Assembly: GCA_017499595.2 (NCBI GenBank)
Contig: CM038998.1
Span: 1,860,001-1,924,000 of the forward strand
Length of the DNA: 64,000 bases
Source of the DNA: Psilocybe cubensis
Lineage: Eukaryota
Direction of reading: 5' to 3'
Shown: positions 4,630 through 38,547 of the stretch, in pieces
Numbering within the stretch: position 1 is the first letter of the stretch
Layout: each line of letters opens with the position of its first letter
The notes under the pieces: model-generated
Database searches by the model: none
What the model was told of the DNA's origin: nothing
What the model saw: only the letters and a program-made list of their open reading frames with translations
Program-made: the position numbers and the translations under genes

Positions 4630-7115
4630 ATGCTTGCTAGGTCTTCCCGGAGTCTGCTTCCATCTAAACCAAAGTTCCGCTTTCGTGGCTGCCTTTACTC
4701 CCACCATGTCCCCGCTCGCCCCCTTTCTACACACATACAGCACCATATACCCGCTTCCGTCGACGACAGGGCCCTCATAAATCTCTTCGATAGACCCTCC
4801 TCTTCATTCAGACTCTCCTCTACCACACCCACTGGTCTTTTCGGCCATCCTACCCTCACCCATCCCGCTGCACTTATATCCCTTGCCGATGCAACTCTAG
4901 TCCGAGCCCAGCTGTTGACTGCCCGTATTCTCCGGGCTCGCGAGTCCCGGGAAGAGCTCCTCAAGGTCGTAAAGAACCTGGACAGGCTCAGCGACATGCT
5001 ATGTGGCGTCATTGACCTCGCTGAACTTGTCCGAAATGCTCATCCCGATAGAGCGTGGGTGGACGCGGCCAATCACGCGTATGAAGCCCTCTGCGAGTTT
5101 ATGAACGTGCTGAACACAGAGGTTGGGCTCTACGAGGTGTGTATAACTGTTCTCTTTCTCTTTCTGCTCTCATCTTCTCCCACAAGGTTCTTAAAGTCGT
5201 GTTGTCAGACCCCTCGATCGTCAAAACACTCACTCCCGAAGCGTACCAGACGGCCCTGATATTTTGGCGCGACTTTGAAAAATCTGCCATTGATCTTCCC
5301 CCTGCTCAACGCAGCAAGTTTGTCTCCCTCTCTTCCGATATCCTGGTTCTCGGTCGACAATTCCTCGAAGCAGCCAATGCTCCCCGTGCTCCAGCCACTA
5401 TAAAACATTTAGATCTCGCCGGACTTAAAGATAAGGGAATGGGTGTCCGGTTGCAGCTACAAGCACAATTCACCAAGCGTGATTTGCTCGTATACCCAGG
5501 ATCTATGCAAGCACACATGATCATGCGTTCTGCTCCGGAAGAGGAGCCGAGACGGCGAGTCTACCTAGCTGCCAATTCCAGCACTCCAGAGCAGATCGAA
5601 GTTTTGGAGGCCCTCTTACGGAAACGAGCCGAACTAGCCCAGTTGGTTGGACGGAAAAGTTTTGCACATATGACTCTCGATGATAAAATGGCCAAGACTC
5701 CAGGTATGTCGTATCTTTTCCATTCTGACGCCAACAACTTGAATTTGATTGATTCGCAAAAGAAAATGTACTCAATTTTCTTGACGCTCTCCTTGACCAC
5801 ACTCGCCCGTTTGCAAGACGGGCACTGCACACACTAAGCCAGAGAAAACAAGCACACCATGGACTATCCTCTCTACCTATCATTCAGGCATGGGATAGAG
5901 ACTTTTATTGCCCACCTGAACCACCTGCACCACCTATACCATTACCACCACTAACGCTAGGCACAGTATTTATGGGTCTCTCACGCCTATTTCAACATCT
6001 TTATGGGATATCTCTTCGTCCAGCAGACGCTTCCTCTGGCGAAGTTTGGCATTCGGACGTACATAAATTAGAAGTTGTCGACCAAGACAACGGAGTCATC
6101 GGATGGATTTTCGCCGACCTATTTGCACGGCGGGGTAAGCCAAACGGCGCTGCCCATTATACTGTTCGGTGTTCGCGAAGAACGGACGACGATGACGAGC
6201 ACAGAGATGGGACACTGGAAGGTGCCGAGCTACGGATAAAAGAATCCCAGGACTTCGAGGCTGTCAAGCGACACCGGCTACCTAACCAGGATGGTGTATA
6301 CCAGTTACCTCTGGTGGTCTTACTTTGCGAATTTCCTCGGCCGTCACTCGCCAAAGGACCTACAATACTTGACTGGCATGAAGTGCTGACTCTATTCCAC
6401 GAAATGGGTCACGCTATGCATTGTAAGCCCCTTTCTTACTTTCGTTTATGTATCTTACAGTTTTGCTAAATATCATTTACTACTAGCCATGATCGGTCGA
6501 ACAGAATACCAAAACGTAGCAGGCACCCGCTGCGCAACCGACTTTGTCGAGCTCCCCTCTATACTAATGGAACACTTCCTAAACTCACCCACCGTTCTCT
6601 CCCTCTTCGACGTCGACGAGACCTCCACTATCCGCCAAATCGGAAATCACCACAACGACCCATGCCATTCTATCGACACCTATTCCCAGATACTGCTCGC
6701 CGTCGTGGACCAGATATACCACTCACCTGACGTGATCAGCCCTTCGTTTGACTCTACAGCTGCACTGGCACAGTTGCATGATACGCGCGGATTAATACCC
6801 CATGTTCCTGGGACTTCTTTCCAGACACAGTTTGGCCACCTATTTGGCTACGGCGCTACTTATTATTCATATCTCTTCGACCGCGCTATCGCATCTAGAG
6901 TATGGCAGAACGTATTTTCTGGCGATCCTCTCAGCCGGAGTACTGGCGAAAAGTATAAGAATGAGGTGCTACAATACGGAGGGGGTAGGGATCCATGGAA
7001 GATGGTTAGTTCGTTATTGGATGCTCCCGAGTTAGAGACTGGAAATGCAGAGGCTATGCGTGAAGTGGGAAGATGGAAAATTGAAGACGATGTTGGGCAG
7101 CCTGGACGACACTGA
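4630..7115 (+). CDS. MIP: Mitochondrial intermediate peptidase (M3 metallopeptidase, Oct1/MIP), 4 exons
   Basis: Arg/Ser-rich presequence ([10 protein letters not shown]...), [23 protein letters not shown], zinc motif [38 protein letters not shown]. It sits next to the HD genes, as established for Agaricomycetes. Confidence 0.97.
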
Positions 7116-7315: not shown

Positions 7316-9524
7316 TTATAACTCTGCTTCCAATTGTCGAATTTGTTCGTTAAGAGCTTTAATTTTGGCTCTTTTGGCGTTTATAACATTTGAACTTTGG
7401 CAATTTTGAGGGGATGTGACGTATGTGTTGGTATTGGCGGAAATTAGCGATGATGCAAAAAGGTAGGGGTCACCAGACTGAAGCAAGGAAGACCAATCTG
7501 GACCCATAGATGAATTTTCTATGACACTGTTGGGATTATGTTGAATAGAAAATAAAAGGTCATCGTCGGAGAAGGGGATTAAATCATTTGTGTCAGGCAA
7601 GGGGTAAGAACCAATAGCAACATCAAATTCAGAGTCTATGCAACAAAATAGGAATGAGAAATGAATGAAATGGTGCAAAGGTGTAGCACTCACTTTTCAA
7701 TGACTCTGGGTAGTAGGAAGGAACCGAGAGGTGCGCTGAAAAGAGAAGATTGCTATTAGATGACCATGAATGGATATAACAAATTTGACTAGGAAAATAT
7801 ACCAGGTACTAAATTAGCCAAAGGGACTTCGGCCTCCTGGTCGATAAGAGATTGATCAGGAAGATCATATTGACCGTAACAGACTTCCAGAGGACAATCC
7901 AATGAAACATTGTTTTCCAAATGCGCTGGTGAAGGAATTAAACAAAAATCATAAGAAGTAATTGGGCCGTCCTGGTTCCACATTTCGGATAATTCATCAG
8001 CAAATGAATTGGTCATGGGTAATGGGTTGGAGACAGTTTGGAGGCGAGGTATAAGAAGGGCACCAGGTGCACGTTTGTTAGGCCATTTGCCTTCTCCGTC
8101 GGAAAGGCGTCTTTTGCGCTTCAGATTGTGAACGATAGACTCCTCGACCACGTCGTCGATAAGGAACCCCGAAATGGGCTGTTCTTTACTATGGGGATCT
8201 CCCTCTGTCCCAGATATATCAGAGTCGCACTTTGAGTGTGTTAAACCCAATAGCTTTGGACTGGGAGAGATTGTTGCAGAGGTATACAAGGGTGCGATGT
8301 CATCGGACGCGTCTTCTGATAGATCAATGCTACTAGCAGGAGAAGGTAAGCTTGCAGTAGCTATATGTGGTATATGCCATGTGTCCGTCCTGAGAATAGT
8401 CAGCAATACGCCATTGGTAACAAGGAATGGGGCCAGCGCACCTGGATTTCTTGGACGAGCCATTCGGATAACTTTCTGAATCACTTTCGGAGGTAGAATA
8501 ACGACGCTTTCGAGATCGAGATTCAGTCACACAAGAGACTGGAAGAACAACTGATGCAAGCTCTTCATCAGGTACCGGACTCGGCGAATGACTAGGCGAA
8601 GAGGGTTCTGGGGTAGGATATGACCGAGAAGGATTACTAGGATGGCGTAAGGAAAATGCGGTAAAATGTTGCTCAGTGACCTACCTTTTTACGCGGTCAA
8701 CTGGAATTACAGGCAAGTTGTGAGTATCTAGCAAATCTGCTGGTATAGATTCGGGAAATTTGTTGGCATAAAGGGACTTCGCCTTACGTGCCATTACGAG
8801 GAACTCGGCACGAAAAGCATCTGTTGGGTCCATTTCTGACAATATGGTGTTAGGATCACTGGGAAAGGATTTAGATTTCGGTTTGAATATGCTGGTGGCA
8901 GCAGCAATAATTTTCTCTTGTTTATTGGAGAAACGTGTTTTGCGTAGATGGTTCCATCCGATACGTTTTCTGATATCAACAAACCAAGCGTCAATATCTT
9001 TTGAAGAGCAGTTGGTTTGACGAATAATATCCTTTTTAACATCCTTCGATGGATAAGGGTTGTGAAGATTGTTCAATAGCCATTCATATGAAGGCTTGAT
9101 GTACGCAGGATGAGATTTAGGAGCTAGAATTAAACGATTCAGTTGGTCCGATGATAAATTGTGATACCAACTTACCAGATCGTAGGGTTGTTGAATGATC
9201 CTCGAGAGTAAGGTTGCTCATCTTAACCTCTATGATTTTTGAGAGGTCGGTGATAGTGGCGCCACCAATTACGCGGATCTCTTTTTCCAGGTCAATAATA
9301 CTTGAGGTCATCGAATTGATGAAAGAGAAAAAGGTGTATACAGCATTCAAGGTATCTTCGTGTAGAGTTTTATGGTGAGATCGGATAATGGAAGTGAAAC
9401 TGGTTAAGGAAGCTAGAAACGACGTAATCCTTGAATTATCGCGGTCGCCCTGTAGTGCGCTGAGGAAAGTGGCTGAATATTCCTGTACTGTGCCGTTAAG
9501 CATTGAGTCGAGGTGAGGATCCAT
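7316..9524 (-). CDS. HD1: HD1-class homeodomain mating-type protein, 6 exons by manual splicing
   Basis: ATG 9524 (MDPHLDSML); intron 9175-9124. TALE-like homeodomain YEWLLNNLHNPYPSKDVK...IDAWFVDIRKRIGW, LPSPASS, NLS-like KRKRRLSD, and C-terminal coiled-coil AKRAKIKALNEQIRQLEAEL*. Confidence 0.93.
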
Positions 9525-9657
9525 AGTGGTAGTGTTGGGACACCCGTCGCAATGGCTCACGCTCAAGAGACAGCCACTGAGATTCAATTTCAAAACCCCG
9601 CTTGTTTGTAATCCCATATAGGTAACAATAGGCTCAAGGCCCCTTCTGTCTCTGCAG

Positions 9658-9745
9658 TAGTCTCGGCCTCCCATCCTCTTTCGGATCGGTTACCGGTTAC
9701 CCATATTGGGTAACCGATCCGAAAGAGGATGGGAGGCCGAGACTA
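9658..9745. mobile_element. 88-bp MITE-like foldback element: 37-bp perfect TIRs and 9-bp TSD TCTCTGCAG (9649-9657 and 9746-9754)
   Basis: TAGTCTCGGCCTCCCATCCTCTTTCGGATCGGTTACC (9658-9694) is the exact reverse complement of 9709-9745. Identical 9-mers abut both ends. No transposase coding capacity. Confidence 0.88.
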
Positions 9746-9816
9746 TCTCTGCAGTGGCACAATTCACGGGTGGCAACGCTAAAAATACCCAAATGGGGCA
9801 GTGCATCTAAACAATG

Positions 9817-9824
9817 TATATAAA
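9817..9824 (+). promoter_or_regulatory. Probable TATA box of HD2
   Basis: TATATAAA about 110 bp upstream of the HD2 ATG, followed by a pyrimidine-rich stretch. Confidence 0.55.
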
Positions 9825-9929
9825 ATTTGGACTCAGCATTGTCATCATTAAAGCTCCGAATCGTGACTTACTCCCTTGTCCTCCCTCTTGGGTCGATCGC
9901 AAACACCGCAAACCTAACGAAGCTCGACG

Positions 9930-11950
9930 ATGGCCGACGCTATGGATTTTCGTGCAGATTTCAAAACCGAACGGGACGCACTCAGCGCCGCGGCCTCTAT
10001 AGCACATTCACTCAGCCAACAGCTCTCCGATTTGGATATTCAAACAACTCAGTTCGCTCCTCCCTCTGATATTGACACTATGATCCCACCTCTTATTTTA
10101 TCCGTACCTCCGGAAATTTTGGAGCCACTCTCTACACTTACAGTATCTGAAAATGCTCGAAACATGATTTTGGAGCGCTTTGGCCGATTTGTCGCTGAAC
10201 TACAGAAAGAATACACATCCGCCTACAGACATAGTTGTATGGAGGTTTATCGTGTCACTGGCTCAATCTCAGACATGCATGCCCTTCATAAGGCATACCA
10301 GGCATTATCCCAGAGACGAATGGTTCCTACCATTAAATCTCAAGTCGACTTTATTTTGGCAGAAGCAAAAAAGCACAGCAAGAATCCGGTGCAGGATACC
10401 AAACGACATTTCAATAGCGTATGTTGCTCTTTGTTCTTTTCTTTCGGGTCTTGACTTATCTTTTTGTAGCAATTTACCCATGTCCTTGAGAAATATTTCG
10501 AACAAAATGGATACCCTTCAAGTTTACATCGATCGGTATTGGCACAGAAATCAGGCATGACACCGCGGCAAATTGAAGTTTGGGTAAACATAACCTTCAA
10601 CTCCCACTCCAAATTGCTAAAGTGTTTTTTTAGTTCCAAAACCACCGCAAACGAGCAAAACAGGATGGAAAAATTATCCGCCGTCTTGACTCAGATTTAC
10701 CGCTCAAGCGAGCGCTTGAACTCCTATCAAGACCTTTGCAGGTCTATCAACGATTGCCCCTGCCACTGGTCAATGAGCCATGCGGTACTTCCTGGGAGAA
10801 CAATAAACGTGTATGTCTTCCCCTTCTTGAACAGTGTTCGGTATTCAAATGTGAAACTTGGCAGGCCGATACGCAGAGCGAGAGTAGTGAGGTAACCTCT
10901 GTTTTATCTGAAACTGACTCTATCGAAATTCGCCCACCACATGCATTTCCAACTCGACGCAGTGATCAATACCCTGATCCGTTCCCCACTGATAAAGGCG
11001 CTTTCACATTTCCCTCTCCTATATGGAGACGAACGCCAGCGACAACCTCAATCATTCCTACGGCGGTAGATATCGACGATTTTTCCAGACAATTCCATAT
11101 GAAGCTCAACTTTGTCAACAATTCATGGAAGCGAGATTGCACCCCAACAAAATCGGAAGTTTTCTCTTCCACCCCATGGTTTGCGCCTTTGAGGACCATT
11201 CCCCCTTCTGCGCCTCTGTCTTCTCTCCAGCAGCCACGTTCTTTGGCGGGAGCATCAACATCAATGCTGACCTCCACTATCGCAAAAGACCCATTTACTT
11301 TCGTCTTCCCAAAGCCGGGCCAAATGGAGCAACGAGACGAATCGAACATTACTTGCATCGTTAGATTACCTGTTGGACCTAAGCAATCATCTTCCTCTGT
11401 TACAGAGCGCATCCATCGCTCTGTTGATGCCCTGGATCGAGAACGCAAAGGACTCCGGATGCGCCCGCGTACTCCCCACAGTAGTAAACCCTCGACTTCC
11501 CGTCTTGACTCTCATGGTGAAATTGCAGGACGAAAAGGTACACCAACTTCTCGCCGTGGACCGAGTAATCTCCAAACATTTGGTTCTCGAACCTCGTCCT
11601 TCACCTCAGACACATCGTCGTCGGACGATACCTCCTCACCGTCAACTCCCCCTTCTTTCCCCGACTATAATTTGCATCCAGATCTGGTGGTCGGATCCGA
11701 CGACCTCGCGGGTAATTTGGACAGTTACGAAGTTACCCCATCTCCATCTTTTGATTTTACGCTTTCAAAATTTCCAACCGATACCCAACCGTCGTCTCCC
11801 CAAATTTTCGATTTGACCTTTACGAGTCCCATGAATACTAATGCAGGGCCATTATCTTCCCGAACTTTTGACTTTATTTTTCCAAACAAAGTGGCTGATA
11901 GACAGCCTTCGGCTCTCCACCAAAATCATACCCCTCTAATATGTACATAA
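9930..11950 (+). CDS. HD2: HD2-class homeodomain mating-type protein
   Basis: ATG 9930. Introns 10419-10469 and 10584-10633 join KRHFNSQFTHVLEKYFEQNGYPS...LAQKSGMTPRQIEVW|FQNHRKRAK. A PPHAFP...FPSPIWRR block and a Ser/Pro-rich tail follow. Divergent from HD1. Confidence 0.93.
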
Positions 11951-12276: not shown

Positions 12277-13367
12277 TTACATGAATTGTTTGGCCTGGAG
12301 ATTGTTAGCTAAACTGCGCAAGGAAGATTTATAACTCACGAGGCCCATAAGACCACTCAGCCCACCGGAGTTACTGCCACCCACTGCTCCGCTGAATTTG
12401 GACTGAACCAAAAGCTTCATGACGGTCAGACCAGCAGAATTGACTGCATCCTGTTTGTTGCCAGACGCTGCCCCACCAGATTGGTCAAATAATTTAGTAG
12501 CCTCTGCCATGGCCAGACTGATAAGCTGTGTCTGCGATCCACTCCCTCCACCGGAACCAGATGTGAATTGCTTGAGGACCTGAATGGGAAATAGTGGCAC
12601 CGTGAACAATGTCGCCCATTGTGTATATTTTTAGAACAAAGGTCGGGCTACGGTCCGGCCGTACTCCCGAGCCCGATGAAGGGCCCTTTGTCAACGAATT
12701 TTGAATTTGTGACTTACCTGAAGGGCAGCTGCGCCACCCAAATCGTGGGCGCTCAGACCACTCGAATCACCGTTGCCATACGCCTTTGAATGGGCACTTG
12801 TGACAGCCTCTTCGTCAACGGGCTCTTGGTGTTTGTGCTAACGGGTCCAGGCAAAAAAAGTCGGAGTCAGTATTGGGCCTTGCAACTAATTCGGTTCCCG
12901 GGATGCCCAGTGGCGACCGTGATGAATGGGGCATACCTTGTTGCTCGAGATGAAGCTCAAGGCGCTTGAGAAAAGGTCTGAGCCTCCTGATCCGTGCTCT
13001 TGCGCAGTGCGAATAGCTTCGTCTTCGTCAACTTGTACGTACACCGACGTCATCAGCAAAGAGATCGCGTCAAACAATAAGTATCATCAGAACGCTCACT
13101 GTTGGGACCATCGTTAGAGCGGTGGTGGGACGGGCGATTGTCGGGAGAGTTGTAATCTTGGCCTCCGGTCTTTGATACGTTCTCTTTAGAGGCGAATGTC
13201 AGAAACGATCGTGCATCGATCGATGGATCCTCGCCGTAAGGCTGGAGACTTTTTACCTTGGGAATCCTGATAAGCGCTGTAGCCTTGTTTAGCGAGATTA
13301 ATGAATGTGTCCTGTTACTCTGTCAGTAAATCTAGTTATCTTTCCGCAAAGAATTATGACGAACCAT
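12277..13367 (-). CDS. beta-fg: Beta-flanking protein (conserved hypothetical protein flanking the HD locus)
   Basis: ATG|intron|DTFINLAKQGYSAY..., DEDEAIRTAQEHGSGGSDLFSSALSF, AHDLGGAAALQ, LISLAMAEATKLFD, KQDAVNSAGLTVMKL, GLMGLAKQFM*. Located directly after HD2. Confidence 0.88.
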
Positions 13368-29744: not shown

Positions 29745-32700
29745 CTAACCGCGTATGCGTCCCGAAGACACAGTATACAGACGAGGGGCAATGTTCATAC
29801 TTTGTAATTCCTGAAGATAGCAAATTATAAGTGACAAGCAAAAATAATTACAGTGAAATCTACCTGGAAAAGTAATTTGGCAGCATATGGAATGTATAGC
29901 TGCGAGCAAGCGGTTTTGTTCTTGCAAGCTCGACACTGTGGCATAGTTGGTAGGGGTCATTGCGTGGAAGGTGAATGGAATACTTACTTCGAAGCTTTGC
30001 TTTTTCTGTTAGAAGAAATTTTTGAAATTCAGTGTTGTTTCGCAGCAACGTAGTGAAACAGCTTACAAGATTGGCGATAGCTGTCAGACCACAACTATAA
30101 AAGATGTACCTTTGTAAGTCATTGTTCCGAGGACTGGCGTTGCAACTTACATATCACAAACATGGAGTCGATAAGCATCACTAGCCTCAAATAGACGCTC
30201 CTTCAGGAATCCAGCAATACCATGGGAGATCATACAATCACGTTCCATCTCTCCGAAGCGGAGGCCACCGTCACGACTCCTACCCTCTACAGGTTGGCGT
30301 GTCAGGATCTGTACAGGGCCACGAGCACGAGAATGGATCTTGTCATCCACCATGTGCTTGAGACGTTGATAGTAAGTTGGTCCAAGGTAGACCTGAGCTT
30401 GAAGTTTGCGACCTGTATGACCGTGGTACATGACCTCCAGTCCACGAGATTGATAACCTTTCTGACGCAAAAATGTAGAAACCGATTCGACAGTAAGATC
30501 CGTAAATGGCGTCGCATCACCCTCGTTTCCAATAAGCGTAGCGACTTTCGACAGAAGACATTCGACCAAATGGCCAATGGTCATACGAGAGGGTATAGCG
30601 TGCGGGTTAATGATAATATCAGGGACAATGCCTTCTGATGTAAATGGCATGTCTTCCTGGCGATAGGTAATACCAATTGTACCCTTTTGACCATGGCGAG
30701 ACGCAAATTTATCTCCAATTTGAGGGATACGAGTAGATCTGACTCGAACTTTGACGAATTTCAGGCCATCAGAATTGGTGGTCAGAAGCACCTGATCTAC
30801 AATCCCGCTTTCCGTACTCTTCAGAGGGGTTGAGACATCTCTACGAGTATGAGTCCTCGTTCGCTGGCCAAGTTCTTCGCTATCGGGTGGTATAGGCGCG
30901 GTTTTGCCGATGATGATATCTTCGCCAGCGACACCTGTTCCCGGAGCAATAAATCCATCATCTTCAAGTTTGTCGTACGTTCCATGTTTAAGCCGCAGGG
31001 TATTTTCTCGAGTGGGTTTCTGAAATTCTTCTAGAAGTGTTACACCACTTTTCTTTTCGAGATCCATGTAGCTTCTGTAATAGATACTTCGGAAAAGGCC
31101 ACGATCAATAGAGCTTTGATTCATAATGACGGAATCTTCTTGGTTGTAGCCACTATAGCATAAAATGGCAACGATAGCGTTCTGTCCAGCAGGGAGTTCT
31201 CGGAATTTCAGGTATTCCATTGAACGTGTTGTCGCCAAAGGTTTTTGAGGATAATATAGGATATTGGCCATTGTATCCATGCGAATTAAGAAATTCGTTA
31301 GGTATATACCCATAGCTTGTTTGCCCATAGCAGATTGATATGTATTGCGAGGAGACTAGATATATCAAGCTTCAAAACTGATCTAAAGAACAAAATAAAC
31401 ATACGCACTTGATTGTGGTCTGGGAATGGGATGATGCTAGCGCAAATACCAAGTATCATACTGGGGTGAATCTCACAATGTGTCCAGGTGTGAGCATGAG
31501 TACCGGCTTTCAGTCGAGCTGCGGGGTCAAACTCTCCTTCGTTCGTTTGAGTGTCAATACCAGCTTGCTGATTGCGCGAATTCTCAAGGTCCTCTGGAGT
31601 CATCGATATCATGACGGTTTCCTCTTCTTCTGCATCTAACAATTCCACGACACCTGTTTTTATCAGATGCTCCCATTTGTATTCCTCTCCATCGTCATTA
31701 AGGCCGTTGCTGAGCCATCTAACATGCTTCTTTTGCAGAGACAATTGTTGTTTCTCTACGATGAAAAGGGGCCTGCAGACTCGACCAGCATCTGTATACA
31801 ACCGTAGTTCCTTTTCTCGAATGTCGCGTACGATTGAAACTTCAGGGCTAATATCATCTCTTCGCCTTAGTTTCTTGAGAGTTTTGACTAGATTAGCAGC
31901 ATCGCGATGCACACCCATCCAAACACCGTTTACAAAGACCTTTGTGCAAGGTGTCGAAGAATGTGCATTTTCCTCCAGCGATTCAAGACCCCATTCTTCC
32001 AAAAATTCGACAACAGGTGCCGACAATGAACCGACGGAGATACATGACATCAATGCAAGATTTTTCACCAATCCGCAAGCCTGTCCTTCTGGAGTTTCAG
32101 CAGGGCAGACCATACCCCAATGAGTGTTGTGTAGCTGACGAGGTTTGGCAATTTTGCCTTCGCGCCCCAGTGGAGTGTTACACCGACGTAGATGTGACAG
32201 TGTCGATGCATACGTGTACCGATTGAGCACCTGTGATACACCGGCCTTGGACGACATAGATTTTTTCTGATCTCCCCAATTTCCAGTGGCCAAGGAGTAC
32301 TTCAAACCATTAGTGATAGTCTGGTGTTTAACGGCCAAAGCAAGATTGAACTCTTTATGGGTTTCGACACACTGTGACAAATCAGAAATTTGTACATATG
32401 ATCTAACAAGACACGAACCTTCTGCAGGTACCGGTAAACATCTTTTGTCAACTTCCGGAAGAGCATACGGAAAAGGTTGGCAAGTAGAGGGCCAGCCAAG
32501 TCAAGTCGTTTCTTTCCAAAATGATCACGATCATCTAGTTCTCTTCGTTCAAGGGCCGCAAGCAAGAGACGATGGATCATGTAGCCGAAGAAATAAGCCT
32601 TCTTTGACTCAGAACCTTCACCCATAGAGACGTGGGGAAGCATCTCCTTCTGAAGAATTTCTTGTGCATACCGAATTCGGCGATCGCGGGGAAGACCTGT

Positions 32701-33899
32701 AGTAGTTCCACGATTACCGATGAAATCCAGGGCAACCTCCCTGTCTTGAATGACAAAGCCGTCATCGATACAAGGCTTGAGCATTTCTAGCATTTGCGAA
32801 TCTTGCATATCATAACAAATGTGTTCCAGGATGTCGCGATCGGATATGACACCCAGGGCACGGAAAACGACCCAGATAGGTATATCCACTTTGATATAAG
32901 GTATAGTTGCTTTCATGACGTTCCCGAGCTATGGTACAGATATTCATATACTTTTTCAGGGTAAGTTTTATAGCCACTCACCGAACGATCTTGATTCCTG
33001 TGGAACATCTTCACCTGGAACTGACTAATTGTTTTTCCTCCCCTCTCTACAGCACTACGAATCTCGGCAAGAAAATTGATAGGTGACGGTTGCGCTTTTG
33101 CAAAAACATAGACATGGTTTGTAGCCATGCGTTCTTGTGCAATCAAGACCTTCTCAGATCCATTGATGATGAAATAACCTCCGGAGTCATATGGGCACTC
33201 GTTCAAGTCGTATAAGTCTTGATCTTGAAGTCCTCGTAGAATGCAGAAAGTTGACCGAAGCATGATAGGAACCTTGGCTAATGGGTAGGAAATACCACAA
33301 AGGGTAATGAGTAATGACGCATACCTTGCCAATCCATACTTTAGTCGTATCCTGGGGGTTCTCCTCGTGTTCTTGTGTCCAGACGATATCCCCCGGAATT
33401 CCATTGGGATCCTCTCGACCAATCATCACTTTCTTCTTCATTTCAATGTAGAGGGGTGCTGAATACGTCAGGTTACGCAAGCGAGCTTCCTGTGGAAATA
33501 CGGGAACGACTGAGCCATCGGTTTCGGTGACTGTTGGACGTGAAAGGTAAATTTGTCCAAACTTGATTTCGTATCGACGAGTCATGTCAGTATCATGCCC
33601 AGAATGCTGATCTGCTTGGTCCAGTATCAAATCAGAGTTTTCGTCCACGAGTTCCTGCATGGTATTCTGTACGAATTCATCGAAAGAATCTAATTGCTGG
33701 CGAACTAGACCCTTTTGCTCGAAAAAACTTGAGATGACAGTCCAGCAGTCCTCTTGTGTTATCTCTGCATATGCCTCTTCATCTTCCTCCATACCATAGG
33801 TGTCATCTTCATAGTAGGTATCTTGCGTAGCCTCAGGATCTCCAAAGGGATTGAGCAAGATGTATTGGGTTTAGGAATGTAGAAGCTACCTTGAACCAT
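29745..33899 (-). CDS. RPB2: DNA-directed RNA polymerase II second-largest subunit
   Basis: [84 protein letters not shown]. Start MVQ|DPE at 33899. Confidence 0.99.
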
Positions 33900-36452: not shown

Positions 36453-38547
36453 CTAGCTCTTTTGTTTTATTATCCCAGTGGATTCCTCCTCTTCCTTCAG
36501 TCGCTGTCGCTTTAAACGATACTGGGGGCCGATCCGCATTGCAATGTATAATAAAGGCAATACCAGGAAGGACATGCTGCTCATGATAACATACGTCCAT
36601 CCTGTACCTATCGCCTTGATAATTAATTCGATTACCGACACAATAGCAGCGCTCAGCGTGCAACGAATTAAGTTATTCTGGTTTTCGTTGAAATTTTATT
36701 ACTACTAATGAGAAAAAATGGCTACTCACGCATGCGGTGACAGAGGAACTTTGCCCTGGTGAAAGGTCTATCATCAATGTAGAGCTTGCGTTCATTACAG
36801 ATATGCTGATAAAACCACCTAAGAAAACGATGTCAGGCTAGCACAACCGTTGGTGTATTTAAATCTCACCGATAAAGTGTAAAATCAGGGGAATTGCTAT
36901 GTTTACCTTACGTTGAATACCCCAACCATACCCTGCACATACCACGCCTAGAACTATGGAAAAGAGGGGCATGAGTCGAAGGCGAGCCTGTTATCAACAA
37001 TATCCAATCATGAGAAATTAGGACGAAAGGGTGCTACAATTTGTGACCTTTTCGAGGGGAAAGTTTTCTTCCCAATTGGATCCTACATTGGAAGCTGTAA
37101 ATCTAGCTTCCGTCGACTTTTTGAATCGTTTGTATTCAAAATCGAGTATACGTCCAATTGCAACGCTCCCAATAGCCATCCCACCTCCTATTGCCAGAAA
37201 ACATAGACCAGTAGTGGTTTCCGTCAAATAAGGATATGTTTCAATGAAAAGGGTAGAAATGGTAGCCAGAAGTGCATAGAAAACAGCGCATGTAAGAGCA
37301 CTGATGAGCAACAGAACATCAATGTCAGGGTTTAAAAATAGGCGGAAAGGATTTCGGGGAACTTTCGAATTCGATTTGACTGCAAGGTGTTCGATTCCCC
37401 CATTTTTACGACCAATCAAAGGGATTACCGGTTGATAAATAAGAAACGTATTCTCTTTATTTCGGTTGGAAATTGCGAGTAAGGTTTCTGGTTGAAATCT
37501 TCCGGAATATAGCTAGCAGCTTGACGGGTACAAAAAAACTCACAATACGATGATAACAAAGCAGATAGCTGCTGCTATGCAAAGAAACCAGAATATGGAC
37601 CTGAAATAGGTCATTAATGTATGAGCACCAACATATTAATATGAGTTGACATACCTCCAACCGAGCCGGTCAGAAAGTACACCACCAATGACAGGGCCAA
37701 TGGCAGGACCTATCTACTCCACAGAAGAGAATATCATCAGAACCGGTAAGTATTTGAGATTCGAAGCTAACCATAGGGCCAATTGTGAAAACGCCGAAAA
37801 AGCCTCCTCTCTCTGCTCGGTTGGATATATCTCCAACTACCCCAGCACCTGAACACGCAAATTTAGTCGGCATTAAAAATGATCTACTTGAGAAGGTTTT
37901 ACCAATAGCGATTGTACTGGCTGATCCCGTGGCTTGCAAGCAACGTAAAACCATTAGTAACCAATAGTCAGAAGTTGGAACAAGAGCCAGTCCAATGCAA
38001 GATAAGGTTAAAATTAGCAGACATGTTGCAGAAATTGGACGTCGGCCGACATGATCAGAAAGTGGACCCCACAGCATGGGAGCTAGTCACTGTCTTTAAA
38101 TGAAGTATAACGAATCTCTCGAAAGCGGCACCCACCAACGCCTTGCAATATCATATACATAGTGACCTAAATCAAGATATAAGATCGTAAGCAAATGGGG
38201 GCAAAGAAAATGGACATACTGTGAGGTTAATGAGCTCCGTAGATTTGTTGAAAGCATGAGAAATCGTAGGTATGGCTGGGAAATATATATTGGCAGTGAA
38301 TGGACTTGAACGAACGTCAGGAAGGATGCTTTGAATTCATTCGAACCGTGACTCGCCTGAAGAATCCAACAAATGCAGTAAAAATCACGATGGACCACTT
38401 TTCTCTTTTGGTAAACCTGTCGCGATTAGGTTGAGCCTGAGGGTCTAGTTCGACTGTGTTCGTAATTGGGAGTTGACTGGGTTGGATAGATGTTCGAATT
38501 TGGGTAGATTCTTTGTTGTCGTCGCTAGATCGTCCGTGAATGGTCAT
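36453..38547 (-). CDS. MFS drug:H+ antiporter (Qdr-like)
   Basis: WGPLSDHVGRRP (motif A), LRCLQATG, GDISNRAERG, GPAIGPVIGG, YGWGIQRKV. Confidence 0.9.

Follow-up and report, generated by a model that had tools for sequence, protein, structure and literature searches.

A candidate miniature foldback DNA transposon between the homeodomain genes HD1 and HD2 at the A mating locus of Psilocybe cubensis

The upstream region common to the two homeodomain genes of the Psilocybe cubensis A mating locus contains an 88-bp palindrome, which we interpret, with a probability of roughly 70%, as a miniature, non-coding, foldback-type DNA transposon (MITE-like) inserted between HD1 and HD2. The palindrome occupies positions 9658-9745 of the window, by which we mean the whole 64-kb stretch of DNA that was analysed and to which all coordinates refer. 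Sequence inspection and a repeat search both delineated two inverted arms of 37 nt each, the left one at 9658-9694 and the right one at 9709-9745, which are 100% complementary, lie 14 nt apart and account for 74 of the 88 bp, exactly as the initial annotation had described them. The 14-nt core (9695-9708) consists almost wholly of the junction between the two arms. Its first 7 nt (9695-9701) are the second copy of a tandem 7-bp duplication, GGTTACC-GGTTACC (9688-9701), whose first copy (9688-9694) forms the inner end of the left arm; the tandem assigned by the annotation to the core does exist, but one of its copies therefore belongs to the arm. The alternative inner hairpin proposed around TAT was recovered by the repeat search as well (9694-9716), with 10-nt arms at 9694-9703 and 9707-9716 and TAT as a 3-nt loop. 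When one GGTTACC copy is taken out, the element becomes a perfect 39+3+39 palindrome, in which only the 3 central positions of 81 differ from the reverse complement. Apart from this one 7-bp tandem duplication, the arms are devoid of tandem sub-repeats. Coding capacity is absent from the 88 bp, with stops in five of the six frames and a longest reading of 29 aa. The G+C content of the element (54.5%, vs 47.7% in the remaining intergenic sequence) is compatible with a foreign origin.

Both ends of the element are adjoined, in register, by the direct repeat TCTCTGCAG, at 9649-9657 on the left and 9746-9754 on the right, which we consider a putative target-site duplication. The exact 9-bp repeat of the annotation is thus present and abuts both ends, but its length may be 10: with the initial T of the element included, the match is exact over 10 bases (9649-9658 and 9746-9755), giving a duplication of 9 or 10 bp. 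The insertion site itself (9640-9657) is a pyrimidine-rich run ending in CAG and resembles a 3' splice acceptor.

From these features we infer transposition: inverted termini, an abutting direct duplication and 88 bp without coding sequence together argue for a cut-and-paste DNA transposon that carries only its ends. The structural features by which a MITE is recognized, namely terminal inverted repeats, an in-register target-site duplication and a small non-coding size, were all found, the 88 bp lying at the small end of the MITE size range. On these points the MITE assignment of the initial annotation stands, but the window holds no second copy of the element. The length of the duplication points to a Mutator-like or a Foldback-like transposase. 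Mutator-like elements make target-site duplications of about 9 bp (8-11), and the 9-10 bp seen here fit the Mutator-like assignment that had been put forward from this length; Foldback and Merlin-type elements, however, produce equally long duplications, so that length does not discriminate between them. As to the classical Foldback features, the arms cover 74 of 88 bp and the duplication has a length of 9-10 bp, while sub-repeats are lacking except for the 7-bp tandem.

Two other superfamilies were tried and rejected. For a hAT element, which would leave an 8-bp duplication, positions 9650-9657 and 9746-9753 would have to agree; they differ, and only with a length of 9-10 bp does the repeat stay in register. 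An 8-bp reading could be obtained by shifting the right boundary by one base, at the price of unequal termini. For a Tc1/mariner (Stowaway-like) element with a TA duplication, the terminal TA bases turn out to be part of the inverted repeat, and the 9-bp direct repeat outside them would be left unexplained.

We then searched for further copies and relatives at the nucleotide, protein and RNA levels. A blastn search of the window (word size 7, query 9601-9800) for a second copy returned the element itself, its self-inverted match and seven chance matches of 11-18 nt. The 15-nt terminus, with up to 3 mismatches allowed, matched the window five times; two of these matches are the element, and the other three (13153, 27716 and 44887, where 1.16 were expected) have no inverted partner. 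The match at 44.9 kb was also ruled out as a second copy on the ground that it lacks colinearity with the element. Only one further inverted repeat of the window is compact: I13 (37648-37833) lies within an MFS transporter gene, with 148 nt between its arms; it was discarded as another MITE-like structure, its 19-nt arms agreeing at 84% and no direct repeat flanking it. A Pfam scan covered the 73 stop-to-stop ORFs of at least 110 aa in the window, and none of the 73 carries a transposase domain. The 22-nt terminus had no match in a prokaryotic genome collection, which holds no fungi and is therefore uninformative for a fungal element.

Protein-level proxies were used because exon-sized ORFs of contigs occur in protein sets, as the case of RPB2 illustrates. 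The 190-aa minus-strand ORF extending from exon 1 of HD1 into the element had no match among collection proteins of 104-333 aa, from which it follows that exon-level ORFs of the HD locus are absent from that collection. The 63-aa frame through the element, compared with 1.84 billion representatives, gave two matches (E = 6e-6 and 9e-6) to unrelated bacterial-type repeat proteins of about 750 aa, which were set aside as chance. Any long perfect hairpin is expected to match models of perfect-hairpin miRNA precursors, and Rfam returned only such models (mir-4433, MIR2619, mir-4650 and MIR391), which match on both strands at 9656-9748, all below their gathering scores. Membership was rejected for mir-4433 (52.8 bits against a gathering score of 77) and for MIR2619 (45.5 bits against 113). 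What the element has in common with these two is a long near-perfect hairpin, with both strands matching equally; the agreement is one of pairing and not of sequence.

The results of these searches bear on an alternative in which a longer transposon with these same termini inserted at the site and later lost its interior, for instance by abortive gap repair, so that the 88-bp form would be unique to the site and there would be no amplified MITE family. The structural evidence is the same for this history as for the MITE-like reading, the core is almost nothing but an arm junction, and neither the window nor the protein-level searches yielded another short copy. However, to leave the near-perfect 39+3+39 symmetry, a deletion would have had to stop precisely where each repeat ends on its inner side, and the lack of other copies amounts to an absence of data, not of copies. 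We consider such an in-situ remnant unlikely.

The inverted arms and the flanking duplication are far beyond what chance would produce. The 37-nt arm is the longest perfect hairpin arm in the whole 64-kb window when loops of up to 60 nt are considered, and 100 dinucleotide-preserving shuffles gave a mean of 10.8 and a maximum of 14. Among 23 inverted pairs in the 64 kb, the element is the only long perfect inverted repeat, the others reaching 71-89% and being mostly kilobases apart. As single-stranded DNA, the segment 9640-9765 is predicted to fold at -55.1 kcal/mol, compared to -14.2 ± 2.6 kcal/mol for shuffled sequences (z = -15.6), and none of 200 shuffles folded as well. For the flanks, simple arithmetic puts an in-register match of 9 bases by chance at 4^-9, about 4e-6. 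The last six bases of TCTCTGCAG are themselves a palindrome, CTGCAG; across a 3-nt bulge, the hairpin can continue into the two flank copies, and in the predicted fold the CTGCAG of one copy indeed pairs across the element with that of the other.

Palindromes can arise by fold-back synthesis, and replication template switching or the repair of a hairpin-capped break might have created a palindromic insertion or duplication without any transposon, the direct repeat being then the product of a microhomology-mediated duplication. That six of the nine flank bases form a palindrome pairing across the element speaks in favour of such an origin. Yet fold-back copying gives inverted flanks, whereas those observed are direct over 9-10 bases, including the non-palindromic TCT and the T. 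No source for either arm was found elsewhere within the 64 kb, which argues against a local templated duplication; both arms would have to be new. On balance this origin appears improbable.

The genes on either side identify the locus: the window is the P. cubensis A (HD) mating locus, with MIP followed by HD1 on the minus strand and HD2 on the plus strand. The mitochondrial intermediate peptidase gene MIP was identified by its Peptidase_M3 domain in the Pfam scan (5085-7112, plus strand) and belongs to the genes that usually border the A locus in Agaricomycetes. The first exon of HD1 covers 9120-9524, with its ATG at 9524-9522 and a Mating_N match at 3.6e-15, and further exons extend to about 7320. 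Its Pfam matches run on the minus strand from 9689 to 7792 and comprise Mating_N, Homeobox_KN (8684-9217, 4.5e-15) and Mating_C (7792-8526); in the Mating_N alignment, profile position 7 corresponds to the methionine at 9524. HD2 (9930-11947, plus strand) has its ATG at 9930 and a Homeodomain match at 10470-10892. Its residues match the P. cubensis UniRef entry P0121: the large exon agrees at 96%, the only mismatch being an intron that was read through, and both the printed P0121 sequence and tblastn place the N-terminus at 9930. The next-best protein match, from P. cyanescens, is at 45%. These Pfam domains and the UniRef match confirm the identification of the two genes as HD1 and HD2 of a basidiomycete A locus, and the two start codons (9524 and 9930) confirm the 405-bp intergenic region that had been delimited between them. 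Both genes look intact.

The 405-bp span (9525-9929) is the upstream region common to the two divergent genes; within it, 133 bp separate the element from the ATG of HD1 and 184 bp from that of HD2. A pattern search found a canonical TATA match, TATATAAAA, at 9817-9825 on the plus strand, between the element and the HD2 ATG, so that the claim of an element upstream of the HD2 TATA box was upheld. The 'TATA-like' motif that had been proposed for HD1, located at 9613-9622, is a weak candidate, the match at 9817 being the only TATA[AT]A on either strand of 9501-9950. The element is likely to lie upstream of both core promoters.

Besides its annotated start, the HD1 frame on the minus strand is open for 55 codons upstream of the ATG, up to 9689, an extent with a chance of about 0.07 by arithmetic. 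Two in-frame ATGs occur in this upstream stretch, at 9674-9672, which belongs to the left arm of the element, and near 9617-9615. From the first of these the HD1 frame continues without a stop as far as 9524, and this ATG would be relevant only to HD1 transcripts that start upstream of it.

The position between two divergent genes could also suggest a conserved regulatory palindrome of a bidirectional HD1/HD2 promoter, binding protein or forming a cruciform, and not mobile. The centre of the palindrome (9700-9709, CCCATATTGG) has the form CC-N6-GG and differs by one mismatch from a CC-N6-GG motif located 87 bp away in the native promoter (9613-9622, CCCATATAGG); the motif resembles a CArG/MCM1-type box. 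The pair, however, is at chance level, as expected of a 10-mer in two copies. A binding site has no need of 37 perfectly paired bases, and the direct repeat abutting both ends would be left unexplained. We therefore regard a regulatory palindrome as very improbable. Library or assembly errors can create palindromes too, but an assembly or sequencing artefact, the least probable of these explanations, would not yield a 9-10-bp direct duplication of the flank, and the window is free of N. The element is also far shorter than the long reads mentioned in the available text for the published P. cubensis reference (PMC8220353), which may not be the assembly of the window.

If the element is a transposon, a transposase supplied in trans would have cut the two strands at TCTCTGCAG(T) with an offset of 9 (or 10) bp, in what would then have been a 308-bp region between the divergent HD1 and HD2, and fill-in of the gaps would have duplicated the target site on both sides. 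In its original form of 39+3+39 nt, the element would have been little more than a head-to-head junction of two terminal inverted repeats, and a 7-bp slippage duplication would later have changed one arm. Since the sequence without one GGTTACC is a perfect 39+3+39 palindrome, a perfect foldback followed by a 7-bp slippage duplication is the simplest history. The timing of the insertion, like the type of transposase, is a matter that we infer from the sequence. A recent insertion, as proposed in the initial annotation, would agree with the absence of differences in 46 paired positions (37 in the arm and 9 in the flank), a number from which it follows, at 95%, only that divergence is below about 6.5%. 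One change, the 7-bp duplication, is already present and arose either before or after insertion.

With HD1 and HD2 apparently intact and the likely core promoters of both downstream of the element, its functional consequence is most likely none or mild, consisting of an extra 97 bp of spacing and of hairpin-prone sequence. Effects on HD1/HD2 expression, cruciform formation, small RNAs and methylation, as well as the use of the element as an allele marker, are conjecture. A more far-reaching proposal would make the palindrome an allele-specific cis-regulator of HD1/HD2 expression or methylation, acting via a cruciform or RNAi, or else a fragile site promoting rearrangement and new HD specificities, and would see in it a member of an active family with 9-bp target-site duplications in P. 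cubensis. A cruciform might be extruded at this site, where underwinding of the DNA by two diverging polymerases would be greatest, and, if transcribed, the perfect 37-bp hairpin could feed RNAi. We give this proposal little credence.

Our literature search returned no publication that deals with MITEs in Psilocybe or with a transposon at an HD locus of this genus, and the terms 'transpos', 'repeat', 'mating' and 'MITE' do not occur in the available text of the P. cubensis genome note (PMC8220353). Transposable-element insertions in or beside mushroom mating loci have already been described, according to the portions available of the respective papers, in Agaricus bisporus (PMC10051438) and Laccaria bicolor (PMC3411680). 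The nearest precedent, as far as the available portion of the Agaricus paper goes, is a non-autonomous DNA transposon with a 9-bp target-site duplication in Region 1 of the A mating locus of A. bisporus H97 (PMC10051438). The site is empty in H39, copies with other 9-bp duplications are present on other chromosomes, and the transposon has been proposed as a PCR marker for mating type (PMC10051438). It resembles the Psilocybe element in lying at the A (HD) locus of a member of the Agaricales, in its order of duplication, inverted repeat, loop, inverted repeat and duplication, in the 9-bp length of the duplication and in having no intact transposase. Its mobility is backed by the empty site and the other copies, whereas the Psilocybe element is known from its structure at one site. 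The latter also differs in its 88-bp size and in its position in the common upstream region of HD1 and HD2; the likeness, as given here, is one of locus and layout.

The L. bicolor case, again from the available part of the paper, concerns one intact MITE copy beside the B mating-type locus, in a species whose MITE families were defined from 249 copies in 4 families and in which near-identical copies were taken as a sign of recent activity (PMC3411680). Here too a small non-coding class II element is found in a gene-rich region at a mating-type locus of the Agaricales, but it sits at the 3' end of the pheromone/receptor (B) locus and not, like the Psilocybe element, in the HD promoter region (PMC3411680). 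Outside the fungi, the available text on the Tm1 Mutator/Foldback elements of root-knot nematodes, which include MITE-like members, gives target-site duplications of 9 bp (8-10) (PMC3169594). Tm1 and the Psilocybe element are alike in the dominance of the inverted repeats, the short non-coding form and a duplication of about this length. However, the inverted repeats of Tm1 are described as composite, with tandem sub-repeats of 13-15 bp and asymmetric end motifs, while the Psilocybe arms show only one 7-bp duplication. Tm1 also belongs to an animal host and has a known transposase partner (PMC3169594), in contrast to the fungal element, for which the window contains no transposase domain. Compared with these systems, the Psilocybe element is probably an insertion of an ordinary kind in a notable place, and what is particular about it is its very small size together with its position upstream of both HD1 and HD2.

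If the insertion is polymorphic among strains, one A mating allele of this inbred, cultivated mushroom could be typed with a simple PCR length (presence/absence) marker. Should additional copies with other flanks exist, they would establish a very small MITE family for the genus and suggest an active or recently active transposase. An influence on the HD1/HD2 promoter, if there is one, would place the element among the few documented transposons that touch the regulation of mating-type genes in basidiomycetes.

Two further genes of the neighbourhood may be mentioned. Just beyond HD2, a minus-strand ORF at 12280-12630 encodes a glycine- and serine-rich product without a Pfam match; by its position it may be the beta-flanking gene that is usual at the A locus. 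The phylogenetic marker gene RPB2 lies on the minus strand at 30150-33870 of the window, about 20 kb from the HD genes, and its 402-aa exon shares 97% identity with an Agrocybe pediades entry and 92-94% with other Agaricales.
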